DNA from: Zootoca vivipara
Lineage: Eukaryota
DNA length: 64,000 nt
Direction of reading: 5' to 3'
Assembly (NCBI RefSeq): GCF_963506605.1
Contig: NC_083290.1
Location: 26,164,001 to 26,228,000 of the forward strand
Shown: piece by piece, positions 706 through 45,098 of the stretch
Numbering within the stretch: position 1 is the stretch's first letter
How the letters are laid out: each line of letters begins with the position of its first letter
Position numbers and translations under genes: made by a program
Notes under the pieces: model-generated
Told to the model about the DNA's origin: nothing
The model's database searches: none
Seen by the model: only the letters and a program-made list of their open reading frames with translations

Positions 706-1710
706 GTAAGTAAGTAAAACCTTTATTGGCATCAAACAAACTCACAGACAAAATAATAAGAGATTAAAACTGTCACTGTGGCAAACGCTGTGTTAAGAGA
801 GAGAAGGGAATAATCCGCTATCCGCTCTCACGACAATGGGGCTTCTAATAATTCAGACGACTGCAGAGTACAGCGACGAGAAAATAGTAAATTAAGATAT
901 TGAGCCACCATCTTGGTGAGGGCCTGGTCCTTCCCCAGCAAAAGGAATTGTAAGATTTCCCGCTCTGGTCTTCTTCTGGGGATGCCGAGCCGGTCCAGGA
1001 ATTGTTGATGGAGGTCGGCGTAAAGATTACAATGAAAAACCATATGTAGAAGGCTTTCCACCTGAGGGTCATGACACAGACAGAACCTCTCGTCCTTCGC
1101 CCTGCCCGAGAATCTTCCCCACAGGAGGTTCGATGGATTTGCGTTGAACCTGGCCAACGAAAATGCCCTTCTTTCTTGTGGGTTCAGTAGGAAGTCAAGA
1201 TAATTAGGTTTTGTTTCATGAGCCCACGAAAGGTGGAAAAGAAGGGGGGAACATGTTGTGCCTGCTGCTGCTATAAGATCCTGTCTCTCAATGTCCCACA
1301 ACCTAGTTAAGACTGTGGCTTTGGCAGATTGTAAGGACATTGAGCGGAGGAGTTCTACTGAAAGCCCCAGTTGCTGTACCTTCCTGTTGAAGTGTTGTAT
1401 CCCTGGGGGGAGGAAGGTGTCCGAAAGCATTTCCTGGAGGAAGGGATCTCTGTCAAGGTCGAGGCAGATTTTTAGCCAGAATATAAGGAATCTTGCCCAG
1501 GCGACAGATTCCACCTTGTGTTGAGCTCCCTCTAAACATAAAACTGCATATGGGACGCATATGGGACGCATCTTGGAACAGAGAAAATCTTGTAGAGGAA
1601 GGCTGATTGCACTTGCTCTACTGTCTGGGTGAACCCCGGGATCCAGATTGGAATGCCGTAGAGCAGTTGTGATATGGTCTTGGCATTGAAGATCTTGAGC
1701 GCAGAAGGGA
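706..1710 (-). mobile_element. 5'-truncated non-LTR retrotransposon (RTE-X-like ORF2 C-terminus)
   Basis: ORFs 1532-1768 (LLYGIPIW...EQVQSAFLYKIF) and 828-1571 (C-terminal knuckle CLC...H...C); 3' AATAAA plus (TTAC)n tail at ~706-726; 11-bp TSD TAAAGCTATGA at 695-705 and 1711-1721; frame broken by an 11-bp duplication at 1546-1567. Clade assignment is from motif resemblance only. Confidence 0.8.
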
Positions 1711-2960
1711 TAAAGCTATGAAACGGGGGGGGGGGGGGAGTCCCAGAGAAGTCCCTTTTATCATTCACAGTACAGGGAAGGATGCTTTGTCCTTAACTCA
1801 AGGAAAGCAGTGGGTGGGTGGGATCCTCAAAACAAAAGCCTGAAATCCCCCATCTGACTAAGTCTGAATTCATAATAGCAGAAGCTGGAACAGAGCCTGG
1901 GAAAATGAGGGTTGGTACTTCCCCTCGGTCATTTGGAGTGACTCTTTAAAAAGTATTGGGTAGTACTTGCTTTTTAAATAATAACAAATACAACATGTAA
2001 AATTTTTATAATGTTTTAGTGAGTGTTCAAAGCATTTCACAACTTTATCTCTGCCACCCTTTACAATAGCTCAGTTAGTGAGCATTTTTCAGTTGGGGGT
2101 GGGTGGGTTGAGGCTGAGACATACTGGTAGTATTTTTGCCAGAGACCCATCTAATGAGTTCATAGCTGTATTGAGATTTGAACCAGGCAACTTCTGAGAG
2201 GACAGTTGCCACTCCTAAAATGCAGTCTTGTGCATGCTCATTTGGAAATAAAGCCCACTGAATTCAGCGGCCCTAATTTCCAAGTCACTATGCATAGGAT
2301 CCTAGCAGGGCAAAGCAATAGAAAAGTCCACTGTGCTGAAGGAGGGTTGGTTAAAACTAAGGTGTCTCTTTGCCCAACCCTGTCCAGATCTGTCAGCCTC
2401 TGCTAGTGGGGGGAGCTCTGCCTATCTCTAGTCTAAATAAATGTGGAAGGAAGGGATTAGGTCCCTTGCCCAGGGTGTTTATAGTCTGCATTAGATGGGT
2501 AGAAAGACAGACAGACTGGGAAAAAGATGGCAGGTAGGATGCTGTACAAATGTGGGAACCAACCTGGCATTACAGATTTTGAGACAGGAGTGACTTGAAA
2601 GCTGTCCTCCTGAAAAACAGTAGCATTGCTGTTGGGCCTTGTGAAATTGGCGCACTGCTTGGCAGTGGGGGCAGAGAGACTGTTAGTGTGAATGTGGCCT
2701 GTGTGCTTGCCCTACAGTTTCCCAAATGCAGCAACTAGAGCAAGATGTTAGTTCAGATTAGCACAGTGTGTCCTCTTGAGAGGATTCTGCCAAGATGAAT
2801 TTTCACCTAAGGACATAGCATCCTGTAGTTAATGGCAGGAAGTCGTGGAAGTGTACAAATTACCCAGAGGCGTGTGCTATACTGTTGCCCCCCTTCTGAA
2901 GTGCAGAGGAAACTGGTTTTGGCCACCCGGAGTTCAACCAGCACATTGTTTTGCTTGCAG

Positions 2961-5900
2961 AAGAGACGTGCTCTCCCTTTCCCATAGAGTTGCAGCAGGC
3001 CAGGTGTCCTGCGACGGGCTTGGAGACTGCATGGGAGGAGCAGCTCCTGGAGCAGCAAGATCACTTGGAAAAGGAGATGGAAGAAGCAAAGAAGATGATT
3101 TCAGGACTGCAGGTATCTGGTCTGCTTCCTCTGTCTGCATTTAGCCCATTTGCTTCTAGCGGCCACTTGTAAGTTGTGGGGCATAGGAATTCATTCATCC
3201 CCCCTTCAAAATATAGTCCGCCCCCCTCCCCCCATAAGATCTGAGGGACAGTGGACCGGACCCCTGCTGAAAAAGTTTTCTGACCCCTGTAATGTAATTT
3301 AAGGCATGGCTGTGGGAGTCAGAGGCTTTTGGTTCAGCTCCTTGCGCCATATTTGCCCACTCAACCACTTGGATCTGTAGAAGTGGCACTGTTACATGTG
3401 CCATGTAATACTTGCCCCCTCCTCTTGTAATAAAGCAACCTTTTAGTGTTGTAGTACCCACACTTTGGAACTCCCTGCCTATTGACATCAGGCAGACACT
3501 TTTTCAGCAACTGCTTAAAACATTGTTGTTTAGGTAAGCCATAGAAACCGAGATATTTTTAGCTTTCTGACGAATTAAATTGTTCTTTGAATATTTGCTT
3601 TTAACTGGGATTTTTTTTACTGAGAATTTTAATGTCTTATTTCTTTTGTAAACCACTTTGAGGTTTTCTTACAATCAAGTGGTATACAAATGTCGTTAAA
3701 TAAATAGTTTCCAAAAAGGGACCTGCAGCCATTCCTGAGGTAGGTAGGTAGTTCTAGACATTCTGAGATAGCCCAGGGAAGACAAGAGAGGTATGCTGCT
3801 CTTTAAACTTCCAATACTAACTAATGAAATGTGTTGAACGAATGCTTCAGTGCTGAGGAAGCGCACTTAGGAAGCACATCATCACCAAGGGTATGGCAAA
3901 GTAAAAAATTCACCAAGTGGCACTGGCATAGGGCTGGGGAGGGATTGATGACCATAATAGTTGCACAACTACATTCTACACAGCAATAGCAAATCATGAT
4001 TGGATGTGTTATCTGGGGGACAAACTGTGTTCTACCAGATGCAAAGTGCTGGGAAAATACATTCCCACACCAGAAGTGTGGTCTGAGATGAACAGGTCTG
4101 GGCTATGTGTAACAAATGCTTACCAAATACGCTATTCTGGTTTTTTTTTCTTTAAAGAAAGGGAATAATACACAGTAAAAACTATAGAGAAAAGGGGACA
4201 ATCCCTTCATCAGATCAACAGTTGATAAAAAATGCTAGAATTCCATAGCTGCCAAGTTTTCCCTTTTCTCGCGAGGAAGCCTATTCAGCATAAGGGAATT
4301 TCCCTTTAAAAAAGGGAGAACTTGGCAGCTATGGAATTCAGGTTTCCACCCAAGGCGGCTAAAGGACTGAGTTTATTTGCCTTGTGAGAAGCCCTGCTTC
4401 AATGATGAGATATAGTGTTTCTTCCTGACCGGTTTGCTCCTCCACCTCTGACCCCTCCCTGGTTACGTGACCCACCCTCCTCCTCGTTGCTCTGCTTGGA
4501 GGTCAAGTGCTCTGTTCCTTCTGCTAAAGGCTCTGTACTTTCTCAAGCACCAGCATTTTCTGCTCTGGGAACTGCGCTGGTTTTGAATGGTAAATGTTTA
4601 TGTATGAGTGCACAAAGGCAGCATTGTGTTGGCAGCATCAAACAGGGCAGGCAGGAGGGTGCATTTGCAGCCGGCAGTGAACAGGAGACACAAAAGGCTC
4701 AAAAAGCAGGCAGGGCTGCTTGGTGCCCTGCTGAAAATTGATTGCCCACTGTACCCTCTGAGATCGTGCACTCCCTTCTCTAGTTCTTCATGCTCCGGGA
4801 GCCAACGGGAGGCAGCTGGTTCTCAGGGCGGCAGCTGCCTGGCATCATGTCTCCCAGGAGAAGCGAGGAGGCAGCTGATCCCACTGTCCAGGAAATTGGA
4901 TCTGAATAGTCAATTTTCCCCTTTAAAGCCTCTAGTTCACGAGGGTTTGATTGAAGGCCCAGGGCTTAGCATGTTTCTTTGGGAGGCAGGACAGTAGCAG
5001 CTCCCTGGTTGGTCTCGACTGGATATCATGCTGGGCAAACCTTGGGAGCTCTTGGCATAGGAAATGCAAATGTGTATGAGGTTGGCATTTTGCCAGGGTT
5101 GCCTCTCCCTTGGTTATCTTATCACACACATTCTGCCAACTTCAGAGTTTAGCCTTGCTGAATCTCAGTTCGACTGTCCCTGTTGCTTTCCAGTGCTCTT
5201 TCTGGGATCTAAGTAAAACATAAATTCAGCCTGCAAAGTAAAGACTACTTGCCTTACATCTTCCATATCTTAACTCCCGTCAGCTTCTGTCTCCTATAGT
5301 TGTTTTCATGCTCAGGTCTACAGAATGGGAATAATTACAGTCTTAATTCACAGGGCTAGAATTGCGTCTGTCTCTCTTTCTGCCTCCGTCTATTTCCAGA
5401 GTTCAGAGATGAGTGTCTATCCTTAGGTAGCCAAAACAGCATTATCCATACACAAGTTCAAGTAAAAATAGATATCTCTTGGGAAACTAAGCTCGCTGTT
5501 TATACTGTTACGGCTTTGAAGACTTGACTCCAAAAGGGCCTTAGCGGTCTGCCAAAAGCAGCACTCTTTGTTTCTTTCCCTTGTGTCCAAATACCGCTTT
5601 TTAACGTCATCTGAGGACAGAATCCAGCTTTTGTGCTGTTGGGCACCAGTTGCTGAAACAGACAAGGTTGCACATCCCAGACGGGGCCTTTCCAGACGGG
5701 ATTGAATTTCTCTCTGGCGCGTTTCCATGGAGGTCTCTGATTGGGATTTTCCCTTTGCCTTTGTTGCTTTGCCAGGCCTTGCTGCTCAATGGGTCGTTAC
5801 CTGAGGATGAGCAAGAAAGACTGTTTGTCCTTTGCGAACAAGATGCCTGCCCCGAAGAGCAGCTGGTGAGTCGGAAAGGCTTTTTCTCCGGAGACTCTTT

Positions 5901-8900
5901 TCTGTGTGTAGTATCTCTATGTAGGCACTGGTAAATAATTGCAATACTTTGCCTTCAGGTCATAGTCCGAAGCCGTCTGGATCAGAGCATGGAGGAGAAT
6001 CAAGAGCTGAAGGTAAGAAGAGGCAGACACGATGCAAGAAAGAGGTTCCTGGGGCACCAGCTACTGAGCCATGTTCAGGGTCTTGTAGCTAACTTATAAA
6101 GCCAGAAAGGTTAGCAGAAAGACCGCCTGCTCCTCTATAAACCTGTAAGATTACTTAGATGGTTTGGGGAATTTTTACTTGTAGTAACAGACCCAACAGA
6201 ACATCGCAGAGTGGTTACCTGGAAACGGGCATTTTTGCCTCTGCCATATAGGAAGCATCATCCACAAATTGCTTCAGACAGGGGGAGGACCAAGAGGTTT
6301 GAATTTACTTATTTACTTTTGCATTTTGCAAGCCGCTTAGTGGACCTGATGGTCAAGCACAGGATATATACCTAACTGTTGGGGATGTCTGTGAGACAGG
6401 AAGATTTCGTCCGATTGCGTTTTAAAAGTTCTCACTGGGTCATTTGTGTTTACACGGGAGGAGTTGAATGCTACATGCAGGGAAACGGTGGTGTGGTTTT
6501 TTTTGTCTAACATGCAAATCCAAACCATTTCAAATTTTCATTGTGGGGCTATACCATGTGTGGGATCAATGGCTATAAAGCAGGCATCCCCAAACTGCGG
6601 CCCTCCAGATGTTTTGGCCTACAACTCCCATGATCCCTAGCTAACAGGACCAGTGGTCAGGGATGATGGGAACTGTAGTCCAAAACATCTGGAGGGCCGA
6701 AGTTTGGGGGTGCCTGCTATAAAGCATAACAAGGAACAAGGGACATGTCCTGGGGAAACACAGATTCCCCCCCCCCCCCGCAAGGATGCACTTGCATGCA
6801 CTGAGGGAAGCAAACCATGCAAACTGCACAGACCATGCTCATCCTGAACCACTTCTGTTCTGGTCATCGGCAACCGCATCCCTTGGCAACAACCAGGCCT
6901 AGACTGTGGGAACCAGCTGCAGTGAAAGAGCATGCCTAGCACTAGAAATTATATCCCATCAGGGTTCTTTACAAATTCCTTAACATAAAGCTTAAATTCC
7001 CCATGTGTTTTCAGGTTTTCCTATGGAGAGCCGTGCGGGCTATACTTCTGCATTGGCTTTTACTGCAGTCATGGCCTTCTGTAGTTGATTCTCCCCTTTT
7101 ATCGTGTGATTCTGGTTGCACAAATTTCTGGACCCTCTCTTCTTCTCCCCTGTTACAACATCCCTTCTTCAGCTACTAAGAGAAGCCTAACTCTGCAAGG
7201 TGTTCTCGAAGCCTACTTAACACTGAAAAGTTATGCTATATTTGGAGAACTAATGGGGGCATTAGTTAAGATTTCTGGCCATGTCTAAGTGTATTCACAC
7301 TTTCATTGGCAAGATGAAAGCAGCTCAGGAAAAGGCAATTCTGTCATGTCTGTCTCATCTGGGGCCTATGCAGAAGTTGGCAGCGAGCCCAGGACTCTCG
7401 CTGGAAGCTACATTCTCAGCACTGGGCCGAAAGAGAGATTTTGAGGGCTTGTCGGTTTTCCCTGTTTGCCGTTTAATGTCGAGTCCTTAAGAGATCAGGC
7501 AGTGCCCAGGGGGGTATTCATGCAGGCATTGATTTTTTTCTTGGTTCCTTCAGGCTCATTAAAACAGGTCCTGTACAAAATTCCATTTGATTTTCAAGCA
7601 TGAAAGAGGGTTTCTTTAAAACATTTTAGGTGGGGGAGGATGAACAGGGAAGGGAGGTGGGAGAGGCAGCATTGATTTTGAGACAGTGACATCAGGATGT
7701 CATTGCAACCTCACTTTGTTCAACTTTCAGAAAGAGTTGCAGAGGCACAAGCAAGAAGCTCGAAGTCTGCAAGGGGTAAAGGTGAGACATTCAAGTTTAA
7801 AATTTTGGCTATAGCCTATTGTTGCAGTTGGGCGTGATTGGCGAAGAGGTGCAGAAATGCTCGCCCAGCCTTAATGTAGGGTCATACTTGCTTTTCAAAG
7901 AATTTTCTTTTGCACATCTGAGAACCTAAACCGCTAGCTATGTCTGGAACAGACTCGCAACTTTCATTCTCTCTGTGAGCAGTGGAGAGTTTTAAAAGCA
8001 GCCAACTGGAGGTGTTGAACCTTGAATTCTGCTTGTGAGTTTTTCACCCCGACAGGACCACTTCTGAACATTTTGTAATACACATATAATCCCCACCTGC
8101 CTATCCAAATGTACACAGATGTTTGTAGCTGAAGATCTCTCACACTGGGATATATTGGGGGGGGGTGAGGGGGGGAGATACTCCAACCAGGAAGATAAGT
8201 GTTACCCGTCTAAATGCCTTTCTCCATCAGGACTCCCCCAAGGAATGTGTCTTTTTGGTAGCACTCTATACACCCCCGCCCATAGCTGCAGCCAAGGATA
8301 CTCATGGCACAGGCTTGGGCCGTGGGGAGGTCACTTTGCTGCTGCTAACACAGCAGTTTGACTTCATACTCCATTGTCTCTCAAGGCAGATGGATGCCAA
8401 CAGGAAATACCTATATTCTGCTTTTTCTATTTAAAATATCCAAGATTTAATTGAAACTGACTTATAGGGCCTTTTAAAAAAATGGTTACCAGGTGACAGT
8501 ACCACAATTCTTTTGTTTTCATTATGAGAAACAGTCGTCCTGATCGTGTGGGGCATCAACGTATATTCTCTCAATACAAATAAAAATCCCAGAGTTAGGT
8601 GTGGTGGGGAAAACTTGACTTGCTGCTTCAACCCCCACGTCCAGAATGTTTGGGCAAGGGATTGCAGAGCATATGCAGAAGGCGCTACATTCAGTTCCTT
8701 GCTTCGCCAGGTTCGGCTGAGAAACAGCCCTGCCCATAGCTGCCAAGTTATCCCTTTTTAAAAGGGATTTTCCCTCATGCTGAATAGGCTTCCTCGCGAG
8801 AAAAGGGAAAACTTGGCAGCTATGCCCCCGCCCCCGCTGCCTAGCGCGCTTGCCATTTCCCAGTTGGTGGATTGTCCAGAGGGAAATTAAAATGTGAAGA

Positions 8901-11900
8901 ATAGCTGGAGAAAATGTGAAGGCGATTTGAGGAGCATTTGCATTTGTGCTGAATGTGCAAAAACTGATTTATGTGTCTGATTACAAGTACTCTTGACGTT
9001 AATGTGGGTTTCTGCAAGCAGTTTGTAGGGTTAGAGGCAGCTTCTTCTCTGTTATTCAGTTTCCAAAGGACAAGCTGAATAGGCAAGGCTGGGAAAATCC
9101 CAGGGGCCTGGTCACATCGACCTCTGAAAATTTTAAATTGTGATTCCCTACCCTCCACAAAAAAATAAAAATAAAATGCTGGCAAAAACAGGATGTAGAA
9201 CAATATGTGACAGTACAGTATGTGAAACAGTATGTGAAACGGATACTTAAAAATTAGATTATTGACTGTAAGGAGCTAAAATATTTAACCAGACCTGAAG
9301 ACAGATCATTCTGGGTGGACTGAAAGAACAACCAGTGATTCCCTAATAAATGCTGCCTTTGCCATTTGAAAAGTGTTGAGGATCAGGTGGAAGTAGGCAA
9401 TTTGAAAGGCTCCACCAAGCAATGAGCTCTGCAGTCAACACTCATTGGTCAGAAACAGTCACATCTCCAGTGCATGACAGTTAAAAAAGTCAGTGCTTGC
9501 TTTGAGGATGTGGTTGTGTGAATCTGTCTTCTCCTGAAGGTGAAGGTTGTTGCTTCATGGATCAGTGTACTGATTACTAGGCGTACAACACACATATGAG
9601 GGATCTGCAACAAATCTATGTGCCGTGCTTGGCTGCCTTCAGCTTGTTTATATCCCAGCCATGTGATAATCAGCTCTAGAGCAAGAGATATTTTTAGTTC
9701 TGCCTCCTCACCTGATGTTGCTGGGGGAAAAAACCTGTGAGAAACACGAAGGGAGAGTTGTGGAAATGTACCCTGGCTTGGGCAGATACAGTAGGATTGC
9801 AGGGCAATGTGGTTCTCAGAGCTTACTTAGCTCAAATTCCATGGTATTCCCTAGGCCATTAGGCTTTAAATTGCATTCATGCTTCACATTCATTTTACTG
9901 CAGATGAATTACATGTGTCTTGCTGTGGTTTATGTATTTTGAGATCTTTATTTGGTCCACTAGCAGCCCTCAAAACAAGTGTCTCAAACAATATCTATGC
10001 CTGAATTAAAGGCAATTTTAGTAAAACAGTTCAGATCCTCCCAGGCTACATGCTGCATCGATAATATCGGCCCCTACCTGCAGTCTGAAGTGATGTACTC
10101 CATACAGGTTTGCCACTTCACAACATCGGGAGGCCCACAGCTTCCATCATATAGTGATACTCTGAATGTTACGTTCTCAACTTTTCAACCCTGGTAGATG
10201 TTTACATCTTTCTTGAGTGGGCACTAGGGTACTACTAGGTGAGTGTTGTATAGTTCTACTCACTTGAAGATGCAATGGTAGCTTCTCATTCATGGATTGT
10301 GTAGGTGGTCACTGAGTGGTGGCAGTAGGAATTGACTCTGGGCCACACAAAAGAACCTCCAAAGGCACATCTTTTTGCCCATATTTTTTTTCACTTTAGC
10401 TGCCTGAGCAGCCCTGGGGACAGATACACTTTTTGAGATGCTGACTGCTGGCTGGAGTGTAGCTCTGTGGTGAGATCCTAGAGTTTGGTCTAAACAGTTC
10501 ACCTGGGTTGGCCTGTGTAGTTCTCTTCCTCTAGCCACTGTGCTCTTACCTTCTGCACCTCCCTTCCTTTCCCCTTCACATTTTAGTCTGTAGGTTCTTT
10601 ACAGTGCAGTTTCAAGCACATTTCCTCAGAAGTTAGTCTGAGTGCAATTATACTTGCTTTCTTGCAAATGTTCCAGGGTGGCAGCCTAAAGTGGGTGCAT
10701 TTTATTTTTGCAGGATGCCTTGCAGCAGCGGTTGGTCCAACAGGATGCTCTGATTCTTCAGATAAAGCAAGAGCTGCTTAGAGCAAACATGGACAAGGAG
10801 GAACTGCATAGCCAAAATGTGAGTGGCCTTTTTGTGTTGCAGCGTCCCGTGTGAGGTTTCCTCTCTGGAGACTGACGCTCATGGGACTTGTGAGAGGGGT
10901 TGTAGCGGGAGAGCATGCACTTTGCCTGCAGATGGTCCTAGATTGAATCCTTAGCCTCTCCAGGTGTAGGGGTATGTGTGTGTGTGTAAACCATGTGATG
11001 TGAATGGCCTTCCTCTGCCTCAAAACCTGGAGAGCCACAGCTAGTCCGAGTAAACAATACTGGGATAAATGCACAAGTAATTGTGTGCAGGCATAAGGCA
11101 ACTTCCTGTGTTCCTGTAGGAGAGTTCCATGCCTTACATTTAAAGCATGTGGCCTCCTCCTAAGAATCCTGGGAACTGGAGTTTGTCAGCGTGCTAGGAA
11201 TTGAAGCTCCGTGGGGAATGAACTACAGCTCCCAGGATTCTTAGGGGGAAGCTGTGACTGTTAAAAATGCTGTAAATTAATATGGTGAGAGGGCAGGCCC
11301 GTGGGGAGTCGGGGGACCAGCCGTAACAAGACTGCTTAGGGGGAAATTATGTTGCTACAGCTCAGTGGCCTAATTAATGCCTTCTGTAGCCCATTCTCTT
11401 CCTGAGGGATCTATGTATGTAGCTATTTGCATTTTCCAAAATCACTTTGTCTAGTGAGAAGGGAGAATGGCTTCCCTAGTGTACTTGGCAGTAAAGGATG
11501 GTGCAGACCTGTAAATCCTTTACTTCACAGCCAGGGTTGCTTTAGCCTCAGAGCTGAGCTAGAGCCATCCTGTAAATTCAAAATGGAGGAAGCCTCAGTG
11601 CCCAAGGAAGGGCCAAGGAACAACAGGGGCCTCTGTGTGTGTCATGGCGCATTTTGTAGAGTGTTGCACTGGGTCTCCAGAGCCAGGGGGTACAAACAGC
11701 ACACCCAGCTCACTATTCAGTTGTTTCTTATGCAGGCTGAACTACAGAGGAAAGTGGAGGAGCGGAATCGACTTCTGGCTGAATATAAAGTAAGAAAATA
11801 TTCCTTCCCCTCAGGTTGGGAGGGGGCATGTTGCCCAGGTCACCCCTGCAGTGTAACTGGGAAATCCTCCTCATGTGCCCTTATAATTTTGCCTCTCTCC

Positions 11901-22100: not shown

Positions 22101-22632
22101 CTAAACTACAGTTCCCTTGAGTCTTTGGGGGTAAGCAGCAATATATTGCTTAAATCGTATGAAAGTTTGTCATGTAGATATGCTCCACATTTACCATCCC
22201 CTCATAAGGATGAGGAGCATTGGGGAGATACAAAATGGGTCTGAAATAAAATGAATCATTCATGGAATGATGGGGGCAATTGTATTCCCTAACTGGGTGC
22301 CTCTCAGTATTTTGGACTACAGCTTTTGTGGCTAATGGGAGTTGTAGTCAAAAACATCAAGTTGGGCAAGGCTGTATTTGAGACTAAAAAGTAGGGAGAA
22401 GTTATTGGTTTTTCTCCTCAACATATCTATGCCTGATTTTTACACAAACTCTAGAGATGTTCTGCTTCCTTTTGAAATTCCTCTTTTGAGTTCATATCCT
22501 TACAGCATGTCCCATGCAAGCTATGTATAAAATGCTCTATATTTTGTATAGAAATTCTGAAGTCTGCAATCATTACTATTACAAGGAGGTTCCTTCAGTA
22601 GCACCTTAAAGACCAACTAAGTTTTTATTTTG

Positions 22633-22670
22633 GTATGAGCTTTCGTGTGCATGCACACTTCTTCAGATAC
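22633..22670 (-). ncRNA. Minimal type-I hammerhead ribozyme motif (PLE-associated)
   Basis: Minus strand GUAU-CUGAAGA-A-GUGUGCAUGCACAC-GAAAGCUC^AUAC: helix I GUAU/AUAC, core CUGANGA...GAAA...UH, palindromic helix II, palindromic AGCU minimal helix III. Confidence 0.85.
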
Positions 22671-24067
22671 AGTGAAATGGAAGTTTCCAGGCACTTATGT
22701 AGAGAAGGGGTGGGGAGGGGTGGGGATGGGGAGGGGGGATCACTCAGAAGGGTGGTGGAAATGGGTGATTGACTGACTGATAGCTGTTGATGACCGCAAA
22801 CGACTGCAAATGGTTTTGCATGAAAAAGCAAGGGTTGAGATGGCTGAAGATCGCTTATCATGTATAATGAGATAAGAACCCGATATCTCTGTTCAAACCA
22901 GGTCCCTCCATGGTTTTGAGCTTGGTGATAAGTTGCAATTCAGCAACTTCTCTTTCCAGTCTATTTCTGAAATTCTTTTGTAGTAAGACAGCTACTTTGA
23001 GATCTTGTATAGAATGTCCTGGGAGATTGAAGTGTTCTCCTACTGGTTTTTCTGTCTTCTGGTTCCTGATGTCAGATTTATGTCCATTTATCCTTTGGCG
23101 TAGGGTTTGGCCTGTTTGTCCAATATAGAGAGCTGAAGGGCACTGTTGGCATTTGATGGCATACACAATGTTAGAGGATGAGCAATTAAATAGTCCTGAG
23201 ATGGTATGTTGGATGTTGTTGGGGCCAGTAATGGTGTTGTCTGGGTGTATGTGGCAGCAAAGTTGGCATCTGGGTTTATTGCAGGCTCTGGTACCAGTGT
23301 CCATGTTAAGTCTGGTGGTTGTATTATTGTGGGTGAGGAGTTGTTTAAGATTGGGTGGCTGTCTGTAGGCAATGAAAGGTCTTCCTCCCAGAGCTTGAGA
23401 AAGGGAGCGGTCATTGTCCAGGAGAGGCTGTAGATCTCTGATGATGCGTTGTACTGTTTTAGCTTGGGAGCTGTATGTGATGACTAGTGGTGTTCTGTTA
23501 TTTTCTTTTTTGGGTCTGTCTTGCAGCAGGTTCTCTCTAGGTATCCGTCTGGCTCTGTTGATCTGTTGTTTAACTTCATCAGGTGGATATTTTAGTTCTA
23601 AAAAGGTTTGCTGTAGATCTCTTAGGTGAGATTCTCTGTCTGTAGAGTTGGAACAGATGCGGTTGTAACGTAAGGCCTGGCTGTATACGATGGATTGTTT
23701 GGTATGTTTGGGATGGTAGCTAGAAGCATGTAGATATGTTTGTCGGTCAGTTGGTTTTCTGTATAAGGTGGTGTCTATACGTCCAGAGAAGTTGCTGAAT
23801 TGCAACTTATCACCAAGCTCAAAACCATGGAGGGACCTGGTTTGAACAGAGATATCGGGTTCTTATCTCATTATACATGATAAGCGATCTTCAGCCATCT
23901 CAACCCTTGCTTTTTCATGCAAAACCATTTGCAGTCGTTTGCGGTCATCAACAGCTATCAGTCAGTCAATCACCCATTTCCACCACCCTTCTGAGTGATC
24001 CCCCCTCCCCATCCCCACCCCTCCCCACCCCTTCTCTACATAAGTGCCTGGAAACTTCCATTTCACT

Positions 24068-24105
24068 GTATCTGAAGAAGTGTGCATGCACACGAAAGCT
24101 CATAC
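24068..24105 (+). ncRNA. Minimal type-I hammerhead ribozyme motif (PLE-associated), in DIXDC1 sense orientation
   Basis: GTATCTGAAGAAGTGTGCATGCACACGAAAGCTC^ATAC; predicted cleavage after C24101. Confidence 0.85.
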
Positions 24106-24341
24106 CAAAATAAAAACTTAGTTGGTCTTTAAGGTGCTACTGAAGGAATTTTTTTATTTTACTTCGATCCAGACCAACACGGCTACCTACCTGTAACTAT
24201 TACAAGGAGGGTTACTCTCACAACCTCCTCCCTGCACATTGCTGGCCAAGAGAGAACTGAAGCTTGTTTGTGTGCTGCAACAGTTAAACATACTTTGGAT
24301 TTGTGGACCGAGACTTTAAAGAAAGAAAAAAAATAACCTCC

Positions 24342-24347
24342 AATAAA
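24342..24347 (+). terminator. Candidate distal polyadenylation signal of DIXDC1
   Basis: AATAAA ~130 nt downstream of the PLE insertion, followed by a T/G-rich tract. Other AATAAA hexamers exist at 20534, 22245 and inside the PLE at 24109. Confidence 0.45.
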
Positions 24348-25486
24348 GAGAGTTCGCAAACCCAGGTCTGATTTGCTTTTTTTGGGGGGGGGGGTATGGT
24401 GAGAAGCTTGCTAGGTGCATTGAGTGTCACATAAGACATGCTTCCTGCATGTCAACAAGTGTGTACTGTACTTGAGGAAGGACCCTTGCACTGAGGCTGC
24501 CATAGGAGGGGCTGTTGCCTGGGTCTGGTGTGAGAAGGAAGTCGGTCAACCAAGGAAACGGAGGCCATTTCCTCCACCCTGATTTGTTTGGAAAGGGAAG
24601 GAACTGCAATTTCAATCCCAAGCATCTGTGCCAGCTCAAGGTGTCAGCAAATCCAAGGAACTGGCAGCATTGTACTAGTAGTATTTGATGTGTGTTGAAG
24701 CAGCTGTCTTTGGAAGAAGAAAATGCCCCAAGGCTTGTACCTCTCACCCCCCCCCCCAGCCAGCCAGCATCAGGTATGATCTTAAATAAACCACCCGCTA
24801 AAGTCCCTCCACCCTCGTCACCAGCTTCTTTAATCTTTTGAGCAGCTAAAACCCAGCACACCCACTAATCAGTAACTTTTTAAATCGGGTATTTTTTTTA
24901 ACCTGCAACTATTCTATAGTAAATTCAGCCAGATCCTTTGAGAGATTAAGCACCTTTCCGTTTCAAAAGGGGAAACAATTGTAGTCTGCCAGCACACTGT
25001 TCAGAGGCTGTCTTTTGCCAGGACTGTCTCTTGCCAAGTAAAGGAGCACAGTTCACAGAAAGACAGAAGAGCTTTCAGCGCCAGGTGCTTGCGTGTACTG
25101 TAGATAAAAGGGTACGGGGATTCCTTGGGGCAGCAAACCTTGGTGTAAGAATTCCATTCACTCGTTCCTTCGTTCATTCGCTAGTGGCTCAGGCTGGCTG
25201 CGCGCGCAGCCTCTCGTGACGCCGAAGGGTAACCTCAGGCCACGGCTGGGAGGCAGCCCCGGCCATACTTGACGCGCTTGACGGCTCCTCCCCCGCACGG
25301 CTCCTTTTGCGACAGTGTCGCGCCCCCTCCGCTTCCTCCCGTGCCTTACGGCGCTGCCCGCTCCGGGGAGTCTGAGGGAGGTCACTCGCTCCTCTCTCGG
25401 CCGCCGCTGCCTGACGGAATCCGGGGAGGCCGGGGCCTCCTCCTTTTTTTTCCTCTTGAGGGAGGGAGAAGGGGAGGCGAGGCGGG

Positions 25487-38462
<12,976 letters not shown>

Positions 38463-40590
38463 TCCCTTGAGGCCACCAGGACTTTCTTAGGTCACATCAC
38501 TTCATTCTAAAGAAGCTATTTATATATCTAGTGTTTAGACTTTTAAACAAATGTTCCCTTCTTTATTTTTAAAAAAAATCTTATCTAAATATATATATAT
38601 GGTTGCTGGTAATTTTTATTACCAGTTGTACATATTAAAATGGTTTGCATAGGCTTTCTAGAGCCTGGTTTGGTTATACTGTATTTTATACAGGGAAATG
38701 AATTTGCAAACTTTCTCCCTCCTAAATAGCCCAAAGTGATTGAAATCATGTGGAGGAGCTCGTGCTTCTGATCAAGGGAACACAGGCCCACCCAGCAACC
38801 TGATGACTCATTCTCTGTTCCCAAAAACAGAGGAACCAAGACTGGTAAAAGCAAAGAAAAAGCAAAACACAAGTTGAACTATCTGGTTGCTGAAATCCCC
38901 TTACCAGCAAAGACAGGGAGCTTGTGCATTCTCTCCTCCTGTCCTTTTAGATTAGCAGGCTGTCCTGAAGGATGGAAGAGAACAGGGTTCCCTAATGGTC
39001 CACATGCCAGCTTTTTTCTAGAGTTCAGCAGTTACTCAGATTTTATAGCCACATGAATTATTTGAGAGCACTTTAACTCAAGAACTCCAGTCAGACTCCC
39101 CACATTGTATGGCGACATTTCTTTTTTGAAATAATGCTGACCATATATGTTCATTCTAGTGCATTTTATGAACTTTTCATCTTTGTTTGGCATTAAATCT
39201 TTCATTTTAAGAGATTGCTTCCCCTTCTAGTTTAGTGAATGCTGCTTCACTTGAAGGAGCAGTCATTGTTCAGGGAATTGATGAAATTCATTAGGGGCTG
39301 ATAAACATAAACCAATGCGGTCTGAACATCTGGATGCTGACTTTAGGGTTCCCTCCCCCCTTCCACATTGTTGACCTTAGGAAGCTCTGAGAGGTGTTGG
39401 GACTAGGTGCAATCCAAATGGGACTTGTCCTGTCATTGAAATGAATGTGAGGTCACTGTCTTCCTTCATATAAAAAAGATTGTGCAGAAAAGATAACCTG
39501 AGTGGTTTGTGACCACTGGCCATAAATCAGAGTAAATGAGTTTTGCTTAAGTTCCATTGAAATCAATGGAACAGGTTAGTCGTGACTATTGAAGTGCTAT
39601 TCATTTCAAAATACAGTAGGTGTAACTATATTTCTCTGAATTGAGGTCAGTTCTGTAACAACTTTGTCTTTTGCCAATCCCAGCCTCGGGGAAGTGGCAA
39701 AATTTCTTTGGTCATGTAAATAGTGTAAAAAATTAAATTGCTTGGAATGGTTTTCTGTTGAAATTGTGCCCATTTGCATTTAAGATTGTGTCCACAAAGG
39801 GAAGGATTCTCTAGTGGAAAACACTCCCACGTTTGCTTTCCAAAGAAAATGTTAATTTACAAAGGAGGATCATGTAATAGCCAAGTGACGTGACCTGGAG
39901 AGCCAAGTATACCATTGATAAATATACCCCAAATTATTCTGTATGATATGCATTGCATTAAGTATTGTAAAGTTGTGCTACCAAATCCACTAAAAGAATA
40001 TTCAAGGTGGTTATACTGTGGAGATTAAATATTTTTCTGAGACCCATCTAATATTTTGTTAATTTAGTTGCTGTTTTGCATAAAATCTTTACTGTTTTGG
40101 GAAGAAGCAAGTTGCACTCAAAACGTCCTAACTCCGTTCCCGTCTGGCCAGTTAAGCCAGTTGTGTTCCATTAAATGTTTAAAATTTATTAGATGGCTTT
40201 TTCTTGTCCCTGCTGCTTCATTGTTTGCTGAGGCTATTATGGTATGTGTGTGGAACTGACCCTACTAGTAAGAAGGATTGCTGAGCTTGCCTCACTATTT
40301 GAATCAGTGAAACATGAATCTTAACTTGTCCCACTCAGGGGCTGGGAGTCACAAGAGATTTGTTACTTGAACTATGGATAGCTTGTGCCTACTAACTCCG
40401 TAGCTGCTCTAAATGTTCTTCAGTTATTTTTAGAATCCAACTTAACTAAAGCCTTGAAACTTTTGTGTTTGTTTCATTGTAATAATCCAAAACATTTTAT
40501 TCTACTGACTTTTTAAAATTTTACTGACTATTTCATAAGTAGGGAATGGCTAGTTTCCATTTTTCTTCTTCTTTGATGCTACGGTATGAA

Positions 40591-40730
40591 GTTGGCTAGC
40601 TCAGTCTGTAGAGCATGAGACTTTTAATTCCAGGGCTGTGGGTTCGAGCCCCATGTTGGGTGAAAGATTCCTGCATTGCGGGGAATTGGAATAGATGACC
40701 CTTGTGGCCCCTTCTAATTCTACAATTCTA
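40591..40730 (+). mobile_element. tRNA-Lys-derived SINE with CR1-type 3' tail (Squam2-like)
   Basis: GGCTAGCTCAGTCTGTAGAGCATGAGACTTTTAAT...GGTTCGAGCCCC, then TAGATGACCCTTG...ATTCTACAATTCTA. Confidence 0.8.
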
Positions 40731-41414
40731 GTATATTTGTTGCTGCTGTAGCTGAGAAACAGTATGGACAGCCTTTGAGCCAGGAACTCCTGCTTCAGTT
40801 ACAAAGAGTAATCTAACCTTTTAGATTCAACAAATCCACAACTGGTAAGCTGTGTTTGTCCTGTGTTAAAAATGTATCTCCCATCAATCACATGTCTTTA
40901 AACAGTGCCAGGGAAAAACTTGTATTTAAGTTTGCACCCTTGAGCTGAGTTCTTGTGAATATGTGTTGGGACACAGTTCAAACCCAGACACCACTGGAAG
41001 TGGTAGAATGTGTTATCTTTTATTGTTTGTTAATTGAGGGATCAATGAAAATGTAAACTTTACAATTGCTTTTATAAGATTTTCATGTAGTTGTTGAGCC
41101 GTTACAGTTTGCACAATACAGTAGAAACTCCATGACTGATAAGAAAAACATTTAAAGTAAACATTGGAACATTCTCCATTAGAGTTGAGTTTCAGTTCTG
41201 TACTTAGAAACATATCTTATCTCCAGTTACATTACTCAGCTCTGCATTTGTCCAAAGGGCAGCTGGGATGCCTCCTCTAATGATCAGAGGTATGAAATGC
41301 AGGCAAGCAGCCAGCAACTTTAATATTAACCTATGCAAAGTGTTTGGAAGTGCTGAGTGGGCATTACTTAAACCCTAACCCCCAAGCCCACATGCTGTGT
41401 CAAATCTGTTAACA

Positions 41415-44075
41415 TCACTTCTTTTCAGACACAGGCATTGTGATAAGCAAGACTCTTTTCCGGCTGTGAAATGCTGCCGTTGTTGCTTCTTCATTCACAG
41501 ACTGCGGAAGATCCAAGTGTAATTTATACTTTGCAGGGCATTCAATCAATACATCATCCTAAAATCGAAAAATAAGTTTCTTTGTAAATGAAGTACATGT
41601 GATTGCTACAGGTGAGGCGTGCCAGATGGACACAGGGCTGTCCGAAGGGCAGCCAGAAGGGCAGCCAGAGTTGAGTGTAATTCATGACTAACTTACCTCG
41701 GAAACGCTTAGGTCACACTCAGAGACACAGTGTACCTCTGGCAATTCAACTTTCAGTTCAATCTTCAGAGGCTTCTCATTCGTATCCTTTATGATGGTCA
41801 CTTCATAGGCTGGGGTGCACAATTCCTCTGGCTGCTCTGTAGTGGAAATCTCTTCAATGAGGCATGTTTTAGAGGGCACCATGTTTTCCATTAGCAGAGT
41901 AAAGTCACTGCTGTCTTCCTTTGTTATGATGTTTCTCAGTTGGTCAAGTGTCACTTCTTTCCAAGGTGATTTTTAGACATGGGAATTTAAAAAATACTTC
42001 AATGGATCACATAGCTACAGAAGTATCAGTTATATGTCCTACCTGCCCTCATACAGTTGTAGTGTAGCTAGTAGACAACGGGATGTTTGCTGGCATAATA
42101 AGCTTAAGAGTAGCCTCTTTCTGGGTTAGATCAAGAATCCAGTTAACCCCTGTTTGCTCTTGACCTGATTGAAGAGTTTGCCAATAAAATTTGGCAAGCA
42201 CAATAGTTCTGAAGCAAGAACCACATTTTTCTTTTAGATGATGCATGCAACTGTTTGCAGACATCTTAGAACAGCAATTTCCTCCTATATTAAAGAAAAA
42301 GGAATTGCCTCTCAGCTGCAGTTTGTATAAATACTTACATAAAAACTCATTTAAGGGGGAAGGTTCCATTTAGTGTACTCATAAGTTTTTTAATTTCATT
42401 TTAAAATTGATAAAATATTTCAGGTCCTACTGTTCATCTTAAATTCATAAAACAAGAATATACTGAGGCATGCTGAAACCAAACACGCTTCTGCAAGGGC
42501 TTCTTAATGTGAGTTATAACTTGCATCCTAAAGAGTAGTGTGAGAAGTTTCATCATACCCCATCATGTTTCACTCCTGGTAATGACTTGGGAGGGTACTT
42601 ACCTTTCTGTAAGGTCTTCTGGGACAAAGCCACTGGTGCTTGCTCTCTCCTTAAGCTCTGTCTCATCCTTGCCAGGCTTCCCTTCAGTTTAAATTTTGTA
42701 ATAGTATAGGAGTTTGACAGAATGATGTTGTAATGCTCCTCAATATACTTAAGTGATAGATGGATCAATTGGTCCTTCATTGTTGGGTCATCCTTTCCCT
42801 TCTCAATAACAGATTGGTTGTATGCAATATCAAGGACAGTATAAAACTCTAGAAGAAAAAAAATAGTCTAATTACAGTGGTACCTCTACTTACAAATGTT
42901 TCTACTTAGGAATGGAGCTCCGTCCGCCATCTTGGATGCGGTTTAGATAGGATTTTTTCTACTTACGAATTTTTAGGGTTGCTTCGACTTACGATTTTTT
43001 CTCCCAATGCATTCCTATGGGATTCGACTTACAATTTTTTTGACTTACAAATGTGCATTCGGAACGCATTAAATTCGTAAGTAGAGGTACCACTGTATTG
43101 GTTTTTCATATACATTATATTGTAGAAGACAATGGCGGTATAGCTAAATATGAAGGTTATAAATGTTTGTTGTTGTTTTTAAAAATCATTGTCAAATTGT
43201 GATATTTCAATTGATTTTGCTCTTTTGGCTGTTCCTTTCCTACTCTTTCAGCTAAGGCTCATTGGTTTATATTGTACATTCCTGTCATTTTCACCCCACC
43301 CATTTGGAGAGAGAAAATGGGCTGGGATATAAGGGGCTAAAATAGACCTCTAGAAATGAGTACTGTGCTACAAAGCAAGCTAAACCTTCTGCAAGTAGAA
43401 AAGCTGACCTGATTTCTCTGATACCTCCTCCATTTTGCCAGCCCTCAATGGCACTGGGTCAGATGGCAATTGGGGTGCTGGAACCTGATTCCACCTGCAG
43501 AGGTTAACGAACAATGATTTTTCAGTAGGATCCTGGAAAAAGAATCCAAAACCAGTCAATTAATAAAGGAGGATAATTTATTACTACATCATACAGGCAT
43601 GAACTGGAATAGGAACACAGTCAAACTCTGGTTTGCATTCTCTGGTATTTCTGGTCCAGTGTTTTTGGATTAACTGAAAAGATAATTGCACCTGTTACCT
43701 TACATCCATCTTGTTTTCTATTCTATATAAATAAATAGTTAGGAAGAAGCAATAGAACAAATATAGAATGCAAATCAAGTGCAGAGATGCCTTTTGTATC
43801 TGCCTGGCTAGTTAAGTAAAGGTTTGGTGAAAATGGAGGCATATTTTGATGTCTGAGCTTCCTTCTTGCAGTGCAGGTGTCTTGCAACATACCAAGATGC
43901 AGGTCTTCAGGCACATGTATGGTTCTGCAGGAGCAAAATGTTGCTTTGCGTCTTTGAGTTGCTGCTGCATGAACTGGTGGTAACTTTCAGGATTGCTCTC
44001 AGCCATGTCATCGAGCATCGTCCAGAGTTGGTTTGCTTTTGCCAGCATATCCTCAGAGTTGCAAAGAGCCTCCAT
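41415..44075 (-). CDS. PIH1D2: PIH1 domain-containing protein 2 (318 aa)
   Basis: Exons 44075-43893, 43532-43409, 42848-42603, 41956-41697, 41558-41415 join in frame (957 nt): QLWTMLDDMAESNPESYHQFMQQQL...LFVNLCRWNQVPAP...LDIAYN...LKVELP...YKLHLDLP...LLITMPV; syntenic position between DLAT and NKAPD1. Confidence 0.93.
42875..43095. mobile_element. Tc1/mariner (Tigger/pogo-type) MITE
   Basis: TA|CAGTGGTACCTCTACTTAC...GTAAGTAGAGGTACCACTG|TA; inserted 26 nt upstream of a PIH1D2 acceptor. Confidence 0.88.
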
Positions 44076-44408
44076 GATTGTCTCTTCAACAGTGGGCGGC
44101 TGCAGCAACACAAGAAGAGAGTATGAGAAGACTGTGGGAACAGAACTGTGAAGCTCAGCAGGTGCTTCCAGGGCCTTATTGTGCTCTTTTCTCTGACAGT
44201 GGTAAAATCTATACAGGGGGGGGGATGATTGACTGTGGCTGTCCTTCTCTAAAGAATTGGGAAAACCAATGAGCTAGTCCTACAGCATGTGCCTTGCTGC
44301 CTTGTGCGATGGCAGGATATCTCTCTTGCCCCAACACAGGGCTCTCCAGAGATTTGGGGCTACAGGAAGGCTGGGGCAGATGGGATTTGCAATCCAAGGC
44401 ATCGGGAG

Positions 44409-44470
44409 CATAGCTGCCAAGTTCTCCCTTTTTTTAAGGGAAATTCCCTTATGCTGAATAGGCTTCCTAT
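44409..44470. mobile_element. Partial copy of the 90-bp CATAGCTGCCAAGTT element
   Basis: CATAGCTGCCAAGTTCTCCC...ATGCTGAATAGGCTTCCT; the second TIR is missing. Confidence 0.65.
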
Positions 44471-45007
44471 GATCGGGAGGACATTAGCTTTGGAAAAGCT
44501 ACTTTAAAACAGTTGCTTGGCAGGCATGAATGCAACAGGTACAGCTTTTCCAAACCAATGTGATGAACAAAGCTGCGTCTGTTAAAAAGATGTGACAAAG
44601 TAGCTAAAAAGGGAAGTCCCAAGTTTAGATACTCTATGCTACGTGCTTCCTAAGACTGCAATCCTATCCAAACATCCCTTGGAATCTAAGCACATCAAAG
44701 AAACAATATTTGAGTAAACAACATTCATGGATTGTTCTGTAAATGCCTTTAAGCAAAACTGTTCTTTCTCTGCACCCCGTCATAAGGGGTAATTATACTG
44801 GCCTACTCTGTAGGGCTGTTTGTTTTATTTTAAATATTTATACCACATACCTTTGCAGGGCAAGTTCCAAAATGCAAAGCAATAAAAACTCAGTAGTAAA
44901 ATCTGCAGCTAAAAACTGCACACAAAACCATTTCATTAAATATAAGGGTGGCTTGATCCATGAGGCCTTGATCCAGTATACATCTCCCAAACTCAATCTG
45001 ACTTGCT

Positions 45008-45042
45008 TCTGATGAAGTGTGCATGCACACGAAAGCTAATAC
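45008..45042 (+). ncRNA. Hammerhead ribozyme core (5' strand of helix I largely lost)
   Basis: CUGAUGA-A-GUGUGCAUGCACAC-GAAAGCUA^AUAC; the upstream GUAU is replaced by flanking sequence, so probably impaired. Confidence 0.6.
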
Positions 45043-45098
45043 CTATGACAAACTTAGTTGGTCTCTAAGATGCTACTGGAAGGAATTTTCTTTTTTTT
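45008..45098 (+). mobile_element. ~90-nt PLE-derived mini-insertion (hammerhead core + short 3' segment), diverged subfamily
   Basis: TCTGATGAAGTGTGCATGCACACGAAAGCTAATACC...AACTTAGTTGGTCTCTAAGATGCTACTGGAAGGAATTTT; direct repeat TTGCTTCTGA at 45003-45012 and 45097-45106. Confidence 0.8.

Follow-up and report, generated by a model that had tools for sequence, protein, structure and literature searches.

Copy ends of a Neptune-type Penelope-like retrotransposon with minimal hammerhead motifs in Zootoca vivipara suggest an uncut, linear RNA template

Minimal type-I hammerhead ribozymes have been described in the pseudo-long terminal repeats (pLTRs) of Penelope-like elements (PLEs), and in its accessible part PMC4209133 characterizes them as weakly active and dimer dependent and proposes an RNA circle as an intermediate; their properties are also summarized in the accessible part of PMC6765202. 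For the element Poseidon_Ac of Anolis carolinensis, hammerhead mutants were shown to insert normally, reverse transcription to start at two internal sites bounding the tail, with both strands being extended, and RNA sequencing (RNA-seq) reads neither to begin nor to end at the cut (Frangieh et al. 2024, PMC11167929); an uncleaved template has already been published for this element in the same work. Palindromes at inverted junctions have been noted in rotifer Penelopes (accessible part of PMC3846280), and the Penelope element of Drosophila, according to the available portion of PMC2377424, has its start site in the upstream pLTR and a promoter that is TATA-less.

Here we describe a 64,000-nt stretch of the genome of the lizard Zootoca vivipara (NC_083290.1, positions 26,164,001 to 26,228,000; referred to as the window), in which four insertions of a putative Neptune-type PLE carry minimal type-I hammerheads at their pLTR ends. 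From the ends of its copies, we estimate at about 75% the probability that this family is copied from a capped, uncut, linear RNA. Throughout, +1 denotes the first base of the hammerhead motif, and the predicted cut lies between +34 and +35; on this numbering, the tail ends at +130, and in full-length copies the ATG follows beyond it, at +138.

The element and its hammerhead motif

The motif is present in 18,620 exact copies genome-wide, compared with none for a reversed control, and is therefore not a chance occurrence. It consists of the core CUGANGA...GAAA...UH, helices I and II, an extra base at 9/10.1, and a palindromic helix III, with helix II folding into 5 bp and a 4-nt loop. The monomer fold (-6.8 kcal/mol) is no better than that of shuffled sequences (z -0.44), and an Rfam scan of the window gave no match to a hammerhead family at E<=1.

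The family unit is 3,030 nt long and contains one open reading frame (ORF) of 901 amino acids, with a reverse transcriptase (RT) and, at the C terminus, a GIY-YIG endonuclease. In the intact copy from which it was read (L032), the matches to RVT_1 (E=4.5e-12) and GIY-YIG (E=5.9e-5) both score above the curated Pfam cut-offs, and a search of solved structures with this ORF returned no match. A C-x4-C-x2-C-C-H linker zinc finger can be recognized by eye in the translation ahead of the GIY-YIG region. In the accessible parts of published accounts, such a finger between RT and endonuclease defines Neptune and Nematis, and Neptune and Poseidon are the only PLEs reported for the vertebrates sampled in the accessible part of bioRxiv 2026.07.22.740005. 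On these two grounds, the element is probably a Neptune-type PLE, a class assignment made by motif and domains and not by an RT tree. The named homologues, none of which bears a clade name, come from turtles, at about 70%, and from a lacertid, at 82-84% across 43% of the query, in keeping with a lizard as host. Further features shared with endonuclease-containing (EN+) Penelopes are pLTRs in direct or inverted order, 5' truncation, and a 37-nt tail on one end. Sequence, domains, and published type thus bear out what the initial annotation of the window had proposed, namely, minimal type-I hammerheads of a PLE with a palindromic helix III, and the motifs sit at the pLTR ends of a very abundant and young family.

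Conservation of the core across copies, on which the initial annotation had staked its reading, is found as well. Among 79 copies chosen irrespective of the motif, the core is near-invariant: N7 is A in 67, C in 9, and T in 3 copies (15% variant), G12, a CpG site, varies in 6%, and the other core positions vary in 1% or less, with the power of this comparison being limited by the young age of the family. Subfamilies among these copies differ from one another in the promoter region and in the stretch that follows helix I. In the 79 copies, whose helices are nearly invariant, compensatory changes were not observed, and no helix II change was present among the top-listed differences in contigs of three other organisms, two of which match mainly over the hammerhead and tail. 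Such conservation fits a ribozyme that may be maintained in master copies.

Copy ends and the RNA template

An earlier search had used whole motifs, so that the continuity of copies across the scissile bond could have been due to ascertainment, and anchors downstream of the cut were used instead. Throughout the genome, 19,022 arms extend across the cut as far as +32, compared with 77 that begin exactly at +35 with three non-matching upstream letters (about 170-185 when corrected for capture, ~1%). The downstream anchors give the same picture, and we reject the view that continuity is a mere artefact of the whole-motif search; what had been claimed for the copies in the window is a property of the family throughout the genome. 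In two loci (L165 and L190), copies are interrupted at +35/+36 by opposite-strand sequence starting with CTAG, possibly secondary transposon insertions.

To locate the 5' ends, we examined 95 arms, obtained from the first 100 listed places for a downstream 36-mer after two had been left out and near-duplicates collapsed. Forty of these have their 5' end between -3 and +44, with 20 at -3..+5 and none at +33..+37 (p=8e-6 versus uniform), and hence the cut site as the main 5' end is rejected. Apparent 5' ends at -5..-7 and -53..-69 were partly subfamily divergence points and have been left out of the edge ends. In the whole genome, the letter of the window subfamily four places upstream of +1 is missing from 7,391 matches; the first 30 comprised 20 junctions, of which 18 lie no more than a few letters from +1, and 10 promoters native to other subfamilies, from which it follows that several thousand copies stop at the edge of the hammerhead. 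In a second sample, made up of 93 arms without the core at the expected place (from 90 of 100 listed places, with one +35 case, L101, kept apart and the last ten rows, including a +35 fold-back pair, left out), most inner 5' ends lie within helix II.

A TATA-like box is located at -30/-31 in 69 of 73 copies, and its spacing is kept across two promoter types that differ between box and +1. Furthermore, a G precedes +1 in 26 of 50 junctions without a native T (0.33 expected; p=0.004), and copying of the cap is known to leave such an extra G in other retroelements. Taken together, the pile-up at +1, the TATA-like box, and the extra G point to a putative transcript start at about +1. Several +1 junctions (among them L151, L244, L259, and L260) contain a 6-9-nt inverted copy of the core beside the extra G, a pattern that would result if the cDNA ended in a cap-derived C that snapped back and briefly self-primed.

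The 3' ends of the 95 arms fall into two groups, 45 at +80..+102 and 39 at +125..+133, with the remaining 11 lying further on, mostly by a few letters. Exactly one tail is present in 131 of 141 head-to-head pairs, none in 7, and two in 3. At most inverted junctions, arms that differ in length are joined by imperfect microhomology. Perfect fold-backs on the 14-nt helix II palindrome, with both arms sharing it, were found at 281 loci (about 3% of arms); of six inspected, five have one long and one short arm, and the remaining one is truncated. Of 112 short fold-backs, the first 50 include 7 that are joined at the 4-nt palindrome of helix III.

These ends probably arise as follows. Transcription directed by the TATA-like box would start at about +1, so that the RNA would begin with the 38 nt of the hammerhead. 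On the model of Anolis Poseidon, both target strands would be nicked by the protein, which would prime reverse transcription at two internal RNA sites, about +93 and +130. When the sites at the 5' end of the RNA are used, synthesis would run off at the cap and leave copies of 90-130 nt, such as insertions B and D in the window; when the read-through copy of the sites beyond the ORF is used, long 5'-truncated copies such as insertions A and C would result. Two opposite-strand cDNAs would then be joined by microhomology, with the helix II palindrome as a frequent joint, giving head-to-head insertions. The ribozyme would be weak as a monomer and would cut rarely or at another stage, so that cut RNA would give rise to about 1% of copies at most.

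The initial annotation had suggested that the palindromic helix II could provide a second intermolecular pairing surface. This holds in so far as the palindrome serves as the joint between two opposite DNA arms at the 281 loci, where it is likely an annealing site between two cDNAs or a snap-back point; this role may be a by-product of the length and position of the palindrome rather than a selected one. At the RNA level, the predicted pairing of two copies through helix II (-25 kcal/mol, versus -2.5 for the helix III duplex) suggests that a helix II dimer would compete with the helix III dimer that is thought to be active. A further-reaching reading, which we consider doubtful, is that the hammerhead of Neptune-type elements, as the first 38 nt of the capped RNA, is not needed for the template, that its cutting acts as an off-switch that removes the cap, and that the helix II palindrome is kept as a staple annealing the opposite-strand +93/+130 cDNAs. 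If true, neither an antisense nor a circular template would be required to explain the class-wide occurrence of head-to-head, one-tail insertions, and strong-stop DNA would have its Penelope counterpart in the thousands of 90-130-nt copies.

With regard to the template, the initial annotation had allowed for an RNA that is either uncleaved or re-ligated. The former is supported by the data presented here, whereas the latter cannot account for the copies ending at +1, a position at which an RNA circle joined at the cut offers no end. As proposed in the accessible part of PMC4209133, read-through RNA would be cut as a dimer and ligated into a circle, with the cut re-joined, and this circle would be the template. 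We regard this as unlikely for the family as a whole. The ability to cut does look conserved in master elements, with the core being invariant except for a free N7, but hammerhead-dead Poseidon RNA inserts normally in vitro (PMC11167929), and the small 5'-end excess at +34/+35 is set against a dominant 5' end at +1 that is accompanied by an extra G and, 30 nt upstream, by a TATA-like box. A circle could be the source of long copies; besides the array described below, however, only 1 of the 95 arms exceeds the unit length (L032, about 1.02 units), for which linear read-through suffices, and one further locus (L033) goes from the tail into the next ORF but is rearranged. The array itself (L035) comprises four 598-nt units bounded by a target duplication; the three units that were compared differ from each other at 0-1 positions. 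We consider this array retrozyme-like and the strongest candidate for copying from a circular template. A re-ligated circle is thus possible only for long copies and this four-unit array.

Less probable still is the origin of inverted insertions by palindrome self-priming on an antisense transcript instead of two primings on sense RNA, as put forward in the accessible part of PMC3846280. While palindromes are indeed found at inverted junctions (281 perfect fold-backs) and small fold-backs occur at the +1 junction, the two arms terminate at +93 and +130, which are positions of the sense RNA, the predicted sense start is often where one of them stops, and most junctions show imperfect microhomology and unequal arms. 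Finally, we think it very improbable that the +1 pile-up reflects fall-off of RT at the far edge of the folded hammerhead (or of a bound protein) on a longer RNA: the position of the pile-up matches the 5' strand of helix I, and helix II (+11..+27) contains many further ends, but the fold is weak (-6.8 kcal/mol, z -0.44), the TATA spacing and the extra G are not predicted, and structure normally halts RT at the 3' foot of a helix and not after its unwinding.

Several observations weigh against an uncut, linear template for all copies. More than half of the arms (55 of 95) extend upstream of -3, and a circular template is possible for these. The L035 array fits rolling-circle copying as well as it fits read-through of a tandem master. 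The number of 5' ends is locally raised 2-3-fold around the cut, to 77 at +35 and 48 at +34 compared with 25 at +32 and 31 at +36, and some cut RNA may get copied. The 77 rows at +35 include 22 fold-backs sharing two letters, mostly listed twice, and 13 slippage-like cases, and microhomology-type joins are common at every 5'-end position; the excess at +34/+35 may be a faint trace of cutting in vivo but, being confounded by microhomology, is not decisive. The extra-G sample pools partly selected loci from several searches, and some extra Gs can stem from a small fold-back or from the target duplication; among 12 solo copies with a clear duplication, 2 have the extra G alone, 1 has TG, and 8 have no extra letter. 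The one-tail rule is broken in 10 of 141 pairs, and for inverted junctions the antisense self-priming model has been published (accessible part of PMC3846280).

RNA-seq data were drawn from three raw runs with the same species label, about 6% of each being read. Coverage is hundreds to thousands-fold over +1..+130 and about 0-10-fold at the start of the ORF, and 59-89% of the aligned reads run on into unlike sequence, so that they derive mostly from host transcripts containing short copies. In these three fragmented, unstranded runs, neither starts nor ends of reads accumulate at the cut. This negative is in line with an uncut template but carries limited weight, as fragmented libraries dominated by host-embedded short copies do not resolve ends and do not show the transcript start.

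The insertions and their surroundings in the window

All five motifs of the initial annotation were found again (Table 1), and within the window the 14-nt helix II palindrome is confined to these five sites. Five independent events can be rejected, since motifs 1 and 2 are the two arms of a single head-to-head insertion (insertion A), and the number of insertions is therefore four; this grouping, as well as the family size of about 19,000 copies, had been missing. Four of the motifs are whole hammerheads. The fifth is not, as the copy begins at +4, most of the 5' strand of helix I is missing, and an A is present at the cut position. The variant in helix I of motif 4, interpreted previously as a tolerated G.U, does form a G.U pair but stems from a C>T change that is rare, being present in 2 of 79 copies at this position, and we reject selection or family covariation for this private change.

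Table 1. Positions of the insertions, hammerhead motifs, and associated features in the window and of two further loci of the family
Feature	Position	Strand	Remarks
Left target-site duplication, insertion A	22577-22589	+	13 nt, identical to 24198-24210
Insertion A, inverted tailless arm	22590-23785	-	Ends at +81
Minimal type-I hammerhead, motif 1 (+1..+38)	22633-22670	-	Cut predicted at 22637/22636
Insertion A, direct tailed arm	23785-24197	+	-283..+130
TATA-like box	24037-24044	+	31 nt upstream of the first base of the hammerhead; predicted pLTR core promoter, from sequence and spacing
Minimal type-I hammerhead, motif 2	24068-24105	+	Cut predicted at 24101/24102
Motif 2, helix II palindrome	24080-24093	+	
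Motif 2, palindromic helix III	24097-24100	+	
Penelope tail (+94..+130)	24161-24197	+	Between the two preferred 3' ends
Right target-site duplication, insertion A	24198-24210	+	
Insertion B, short copy	31689-31786	-	Starts exactly at +1, ends near +94; 8-nt target duplication
Hammerhead motif 3	31749-31786	-	Within insertion B
Insertion C, 5'-truncated tailed copy	35478-37262	-	1.8 kb; 15-nt target duplication
Hammerhead motif 4	35570-35607	-	Within insertion C; G.U in helix I
Insertion D, older short copy of another subfamily	45008-45096	+	Starts at +4
Motif 5	45008-45042	+	Within insertion D; helix I incomplete
Full-length copy with intact 901-aa ORF	L032:1294-6220		Contig C1, about 3.428-3.433 Mb
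Array of four head-to-tail 598-nt units	L035:1820-4242		Contig C1, about 2.777-2.780 Mb; internally deleted element, hammerhead in each unit

Insertion A (22590-24197) is a head-to-head structure with a 364-nt, 100% identical inverted repeat and a 13-nt target duplication. RT and GIY-YIG fragments lie upstream of motifs 1 and 4. The inverted arm of insertion A holds the 3' part of the Penelope ORF (thumb, linker zinc finger, and GIY-YIG), the 3' untranslated region (UTR), a TATA-like box, and the hammerhead, and is 98.9% identical to insertion C over 1196 nt. Insertion C itself contains an RT core with a 44-nt frameshifting deletion, followed by GIY-YIG, the 3' UTR, and motif 4 at its 3' end. 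Insertions B and D are short copies of about 90-98 nt that begin at motif base 1 and base 4, respectively; in insertion D, the 10-nt target duplication overlaps the 5' end of the copy by 5 nt. Outside the window, the intact copy L032 has its 5' end at +31, four letters upstream of the cut, and stands head-to-head with a 1.8-kb arm.

The density of motifs in the window exceeds the genome mean (0.83 motifs expected per 64 kb). The family is unevenly spread, with 100 motifs in the first 3.7 Mb of contig C1; the cluster thus needs no special cause, and a special local cluster is rejected. The five motifs are ordinary dead copies in and beside a housekeeping gene.

Pfam matches between window positions 11400 and 57000 identify a DIX-domain gene (+), an E2 acyltransferase gene (+) with lipoyl, E3-binding, and catalytic exons, and a PIH1-domain gene (-), an order that we take to resemble the vertebrate DIXDC1-DLAT-PIH1D2 cluster. 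Insertions B and C are located in introns of the DLAT-like E2 acyltransferase gene and are antisense to it. Insertion D would be antisense to the PIH1-domain gene, if it lies inside the 5' part of that gene. An orientation bias against sense hammerheads in introns is possible (n=3).

Among other features of the window, a hairpin repeat of 135-150 nt with long terminal inverted repeats, resembling a miniature inverted-repeat transposable element, occurs four times (225-373, 6576-6724, 33136-33284, and 37842-37990). Rfam matches to mir-5408 at these four repeats are below the gathering threshold and were rejected, the repeat being transposon-like. Positions 40590-40662 give a tRNA-like match (Rfam, 37.7 bits), possibly the head of a short interspersed element or a tRNA gene. 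At 831-1715 (-), a 295-codon stop-free stretch without a Pfam match gives the impression of the C-terminal part of an ORF of the long-interspersed-element type.

Comparison with known systems

Neither a hammerhead at +1 with a pile-up of copy ends nor the identification of a junction palindrome with helix II was found in the Creative Commons part of PMC and bioRxiv, with subscription papers and supplements lying outside the search; 5' ends or the reptile motif may already be contained in the supplements of PMC11167929 (Fig. S2) and of PMC4209133 (Figs S2-S4). The kind of motif is already known, and the gain in mechanism is modest. The end counts nevertheless bear on the purpose of the hammerhead and on how inverted one-tail insertions are formed, both of which are open in the accessible parts of published work. 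Such counting is made possible by a young family of about 19,000 copies, and exact positions (+1, +34/35, +93, and +130) as well as an intact ORF are now available for bench work.

Tandem non-coding hammerhead units, by which non-LTR retrozymes are recognized, are represented by L035 as the sole array among the loci of the 95 arms. A type-I hammerhead, a Penelope origin, and this one 598-nt tandem array are shared with the retrozymes described in the accessible part of bioRxiv 2026.07.22.740005; unlike them, the copies in the window are solo or head-to-head, end at +93/+130, and do not form tandem units.

The canonical EN+ Penelopes, in the accessible parts of PMC3846280 and of Craig et al. 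2021 (bioRxiv 2021.04.23.441226), resemble the lizard element in their 5' truncation, their inverted head-to-head copy, their tail on one end, the TATA and TCACT-like initiator in the pLTR, and their junction palindromes. In contrast to those accounts, the junction palindrome is identified here as helix II of the hammerhead and is counted (281 loci). In addition, the lizard end data favour a sense template, whereas Arkhipova et al. 2013 (PMC3846280, accessible part) argued for antisense self-priming.

Similar to Poseidon_Ac (PMC11167929), the lizard family appears to use two internal starts of reverse transcription that bound a 30-40-nt tail, with extension of both target strands, and an uncut RNA template, and RNA-seq shows no ends at the cut. 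The two elements differ in layout. In Poseidon_Ac, the ORF starts in stem II and reverse transcription starts inside the ORF (PMC11167929), whereas in the lizard element the ATG lies 103 nt past the cut, both inferred starts fall within the 5' UTR, and the linker zinc finger of Neptune and Nematis is present. By the ends of its copies, the family extends the internal-priming result for Poseidon to a Neptune-type element in vivo.

Compared with the PLEs known to carry minimal hammerheads, the lizard family is larger, with 18,620 exact copies against the 4,000-9,000 cited for coelacanth and Xenopus in the accessible part of Cervera and de la Pena 2014 (PMC4209133), and its motif is nearly invariant within the genome. 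In that accessible part, the motif is not placed at the transcript start, and no 5' ends at the motif edge are reported. The counts of such ends in Zootoca vivipara favour an uncut, linear template over the circle that was proposed in 2014.

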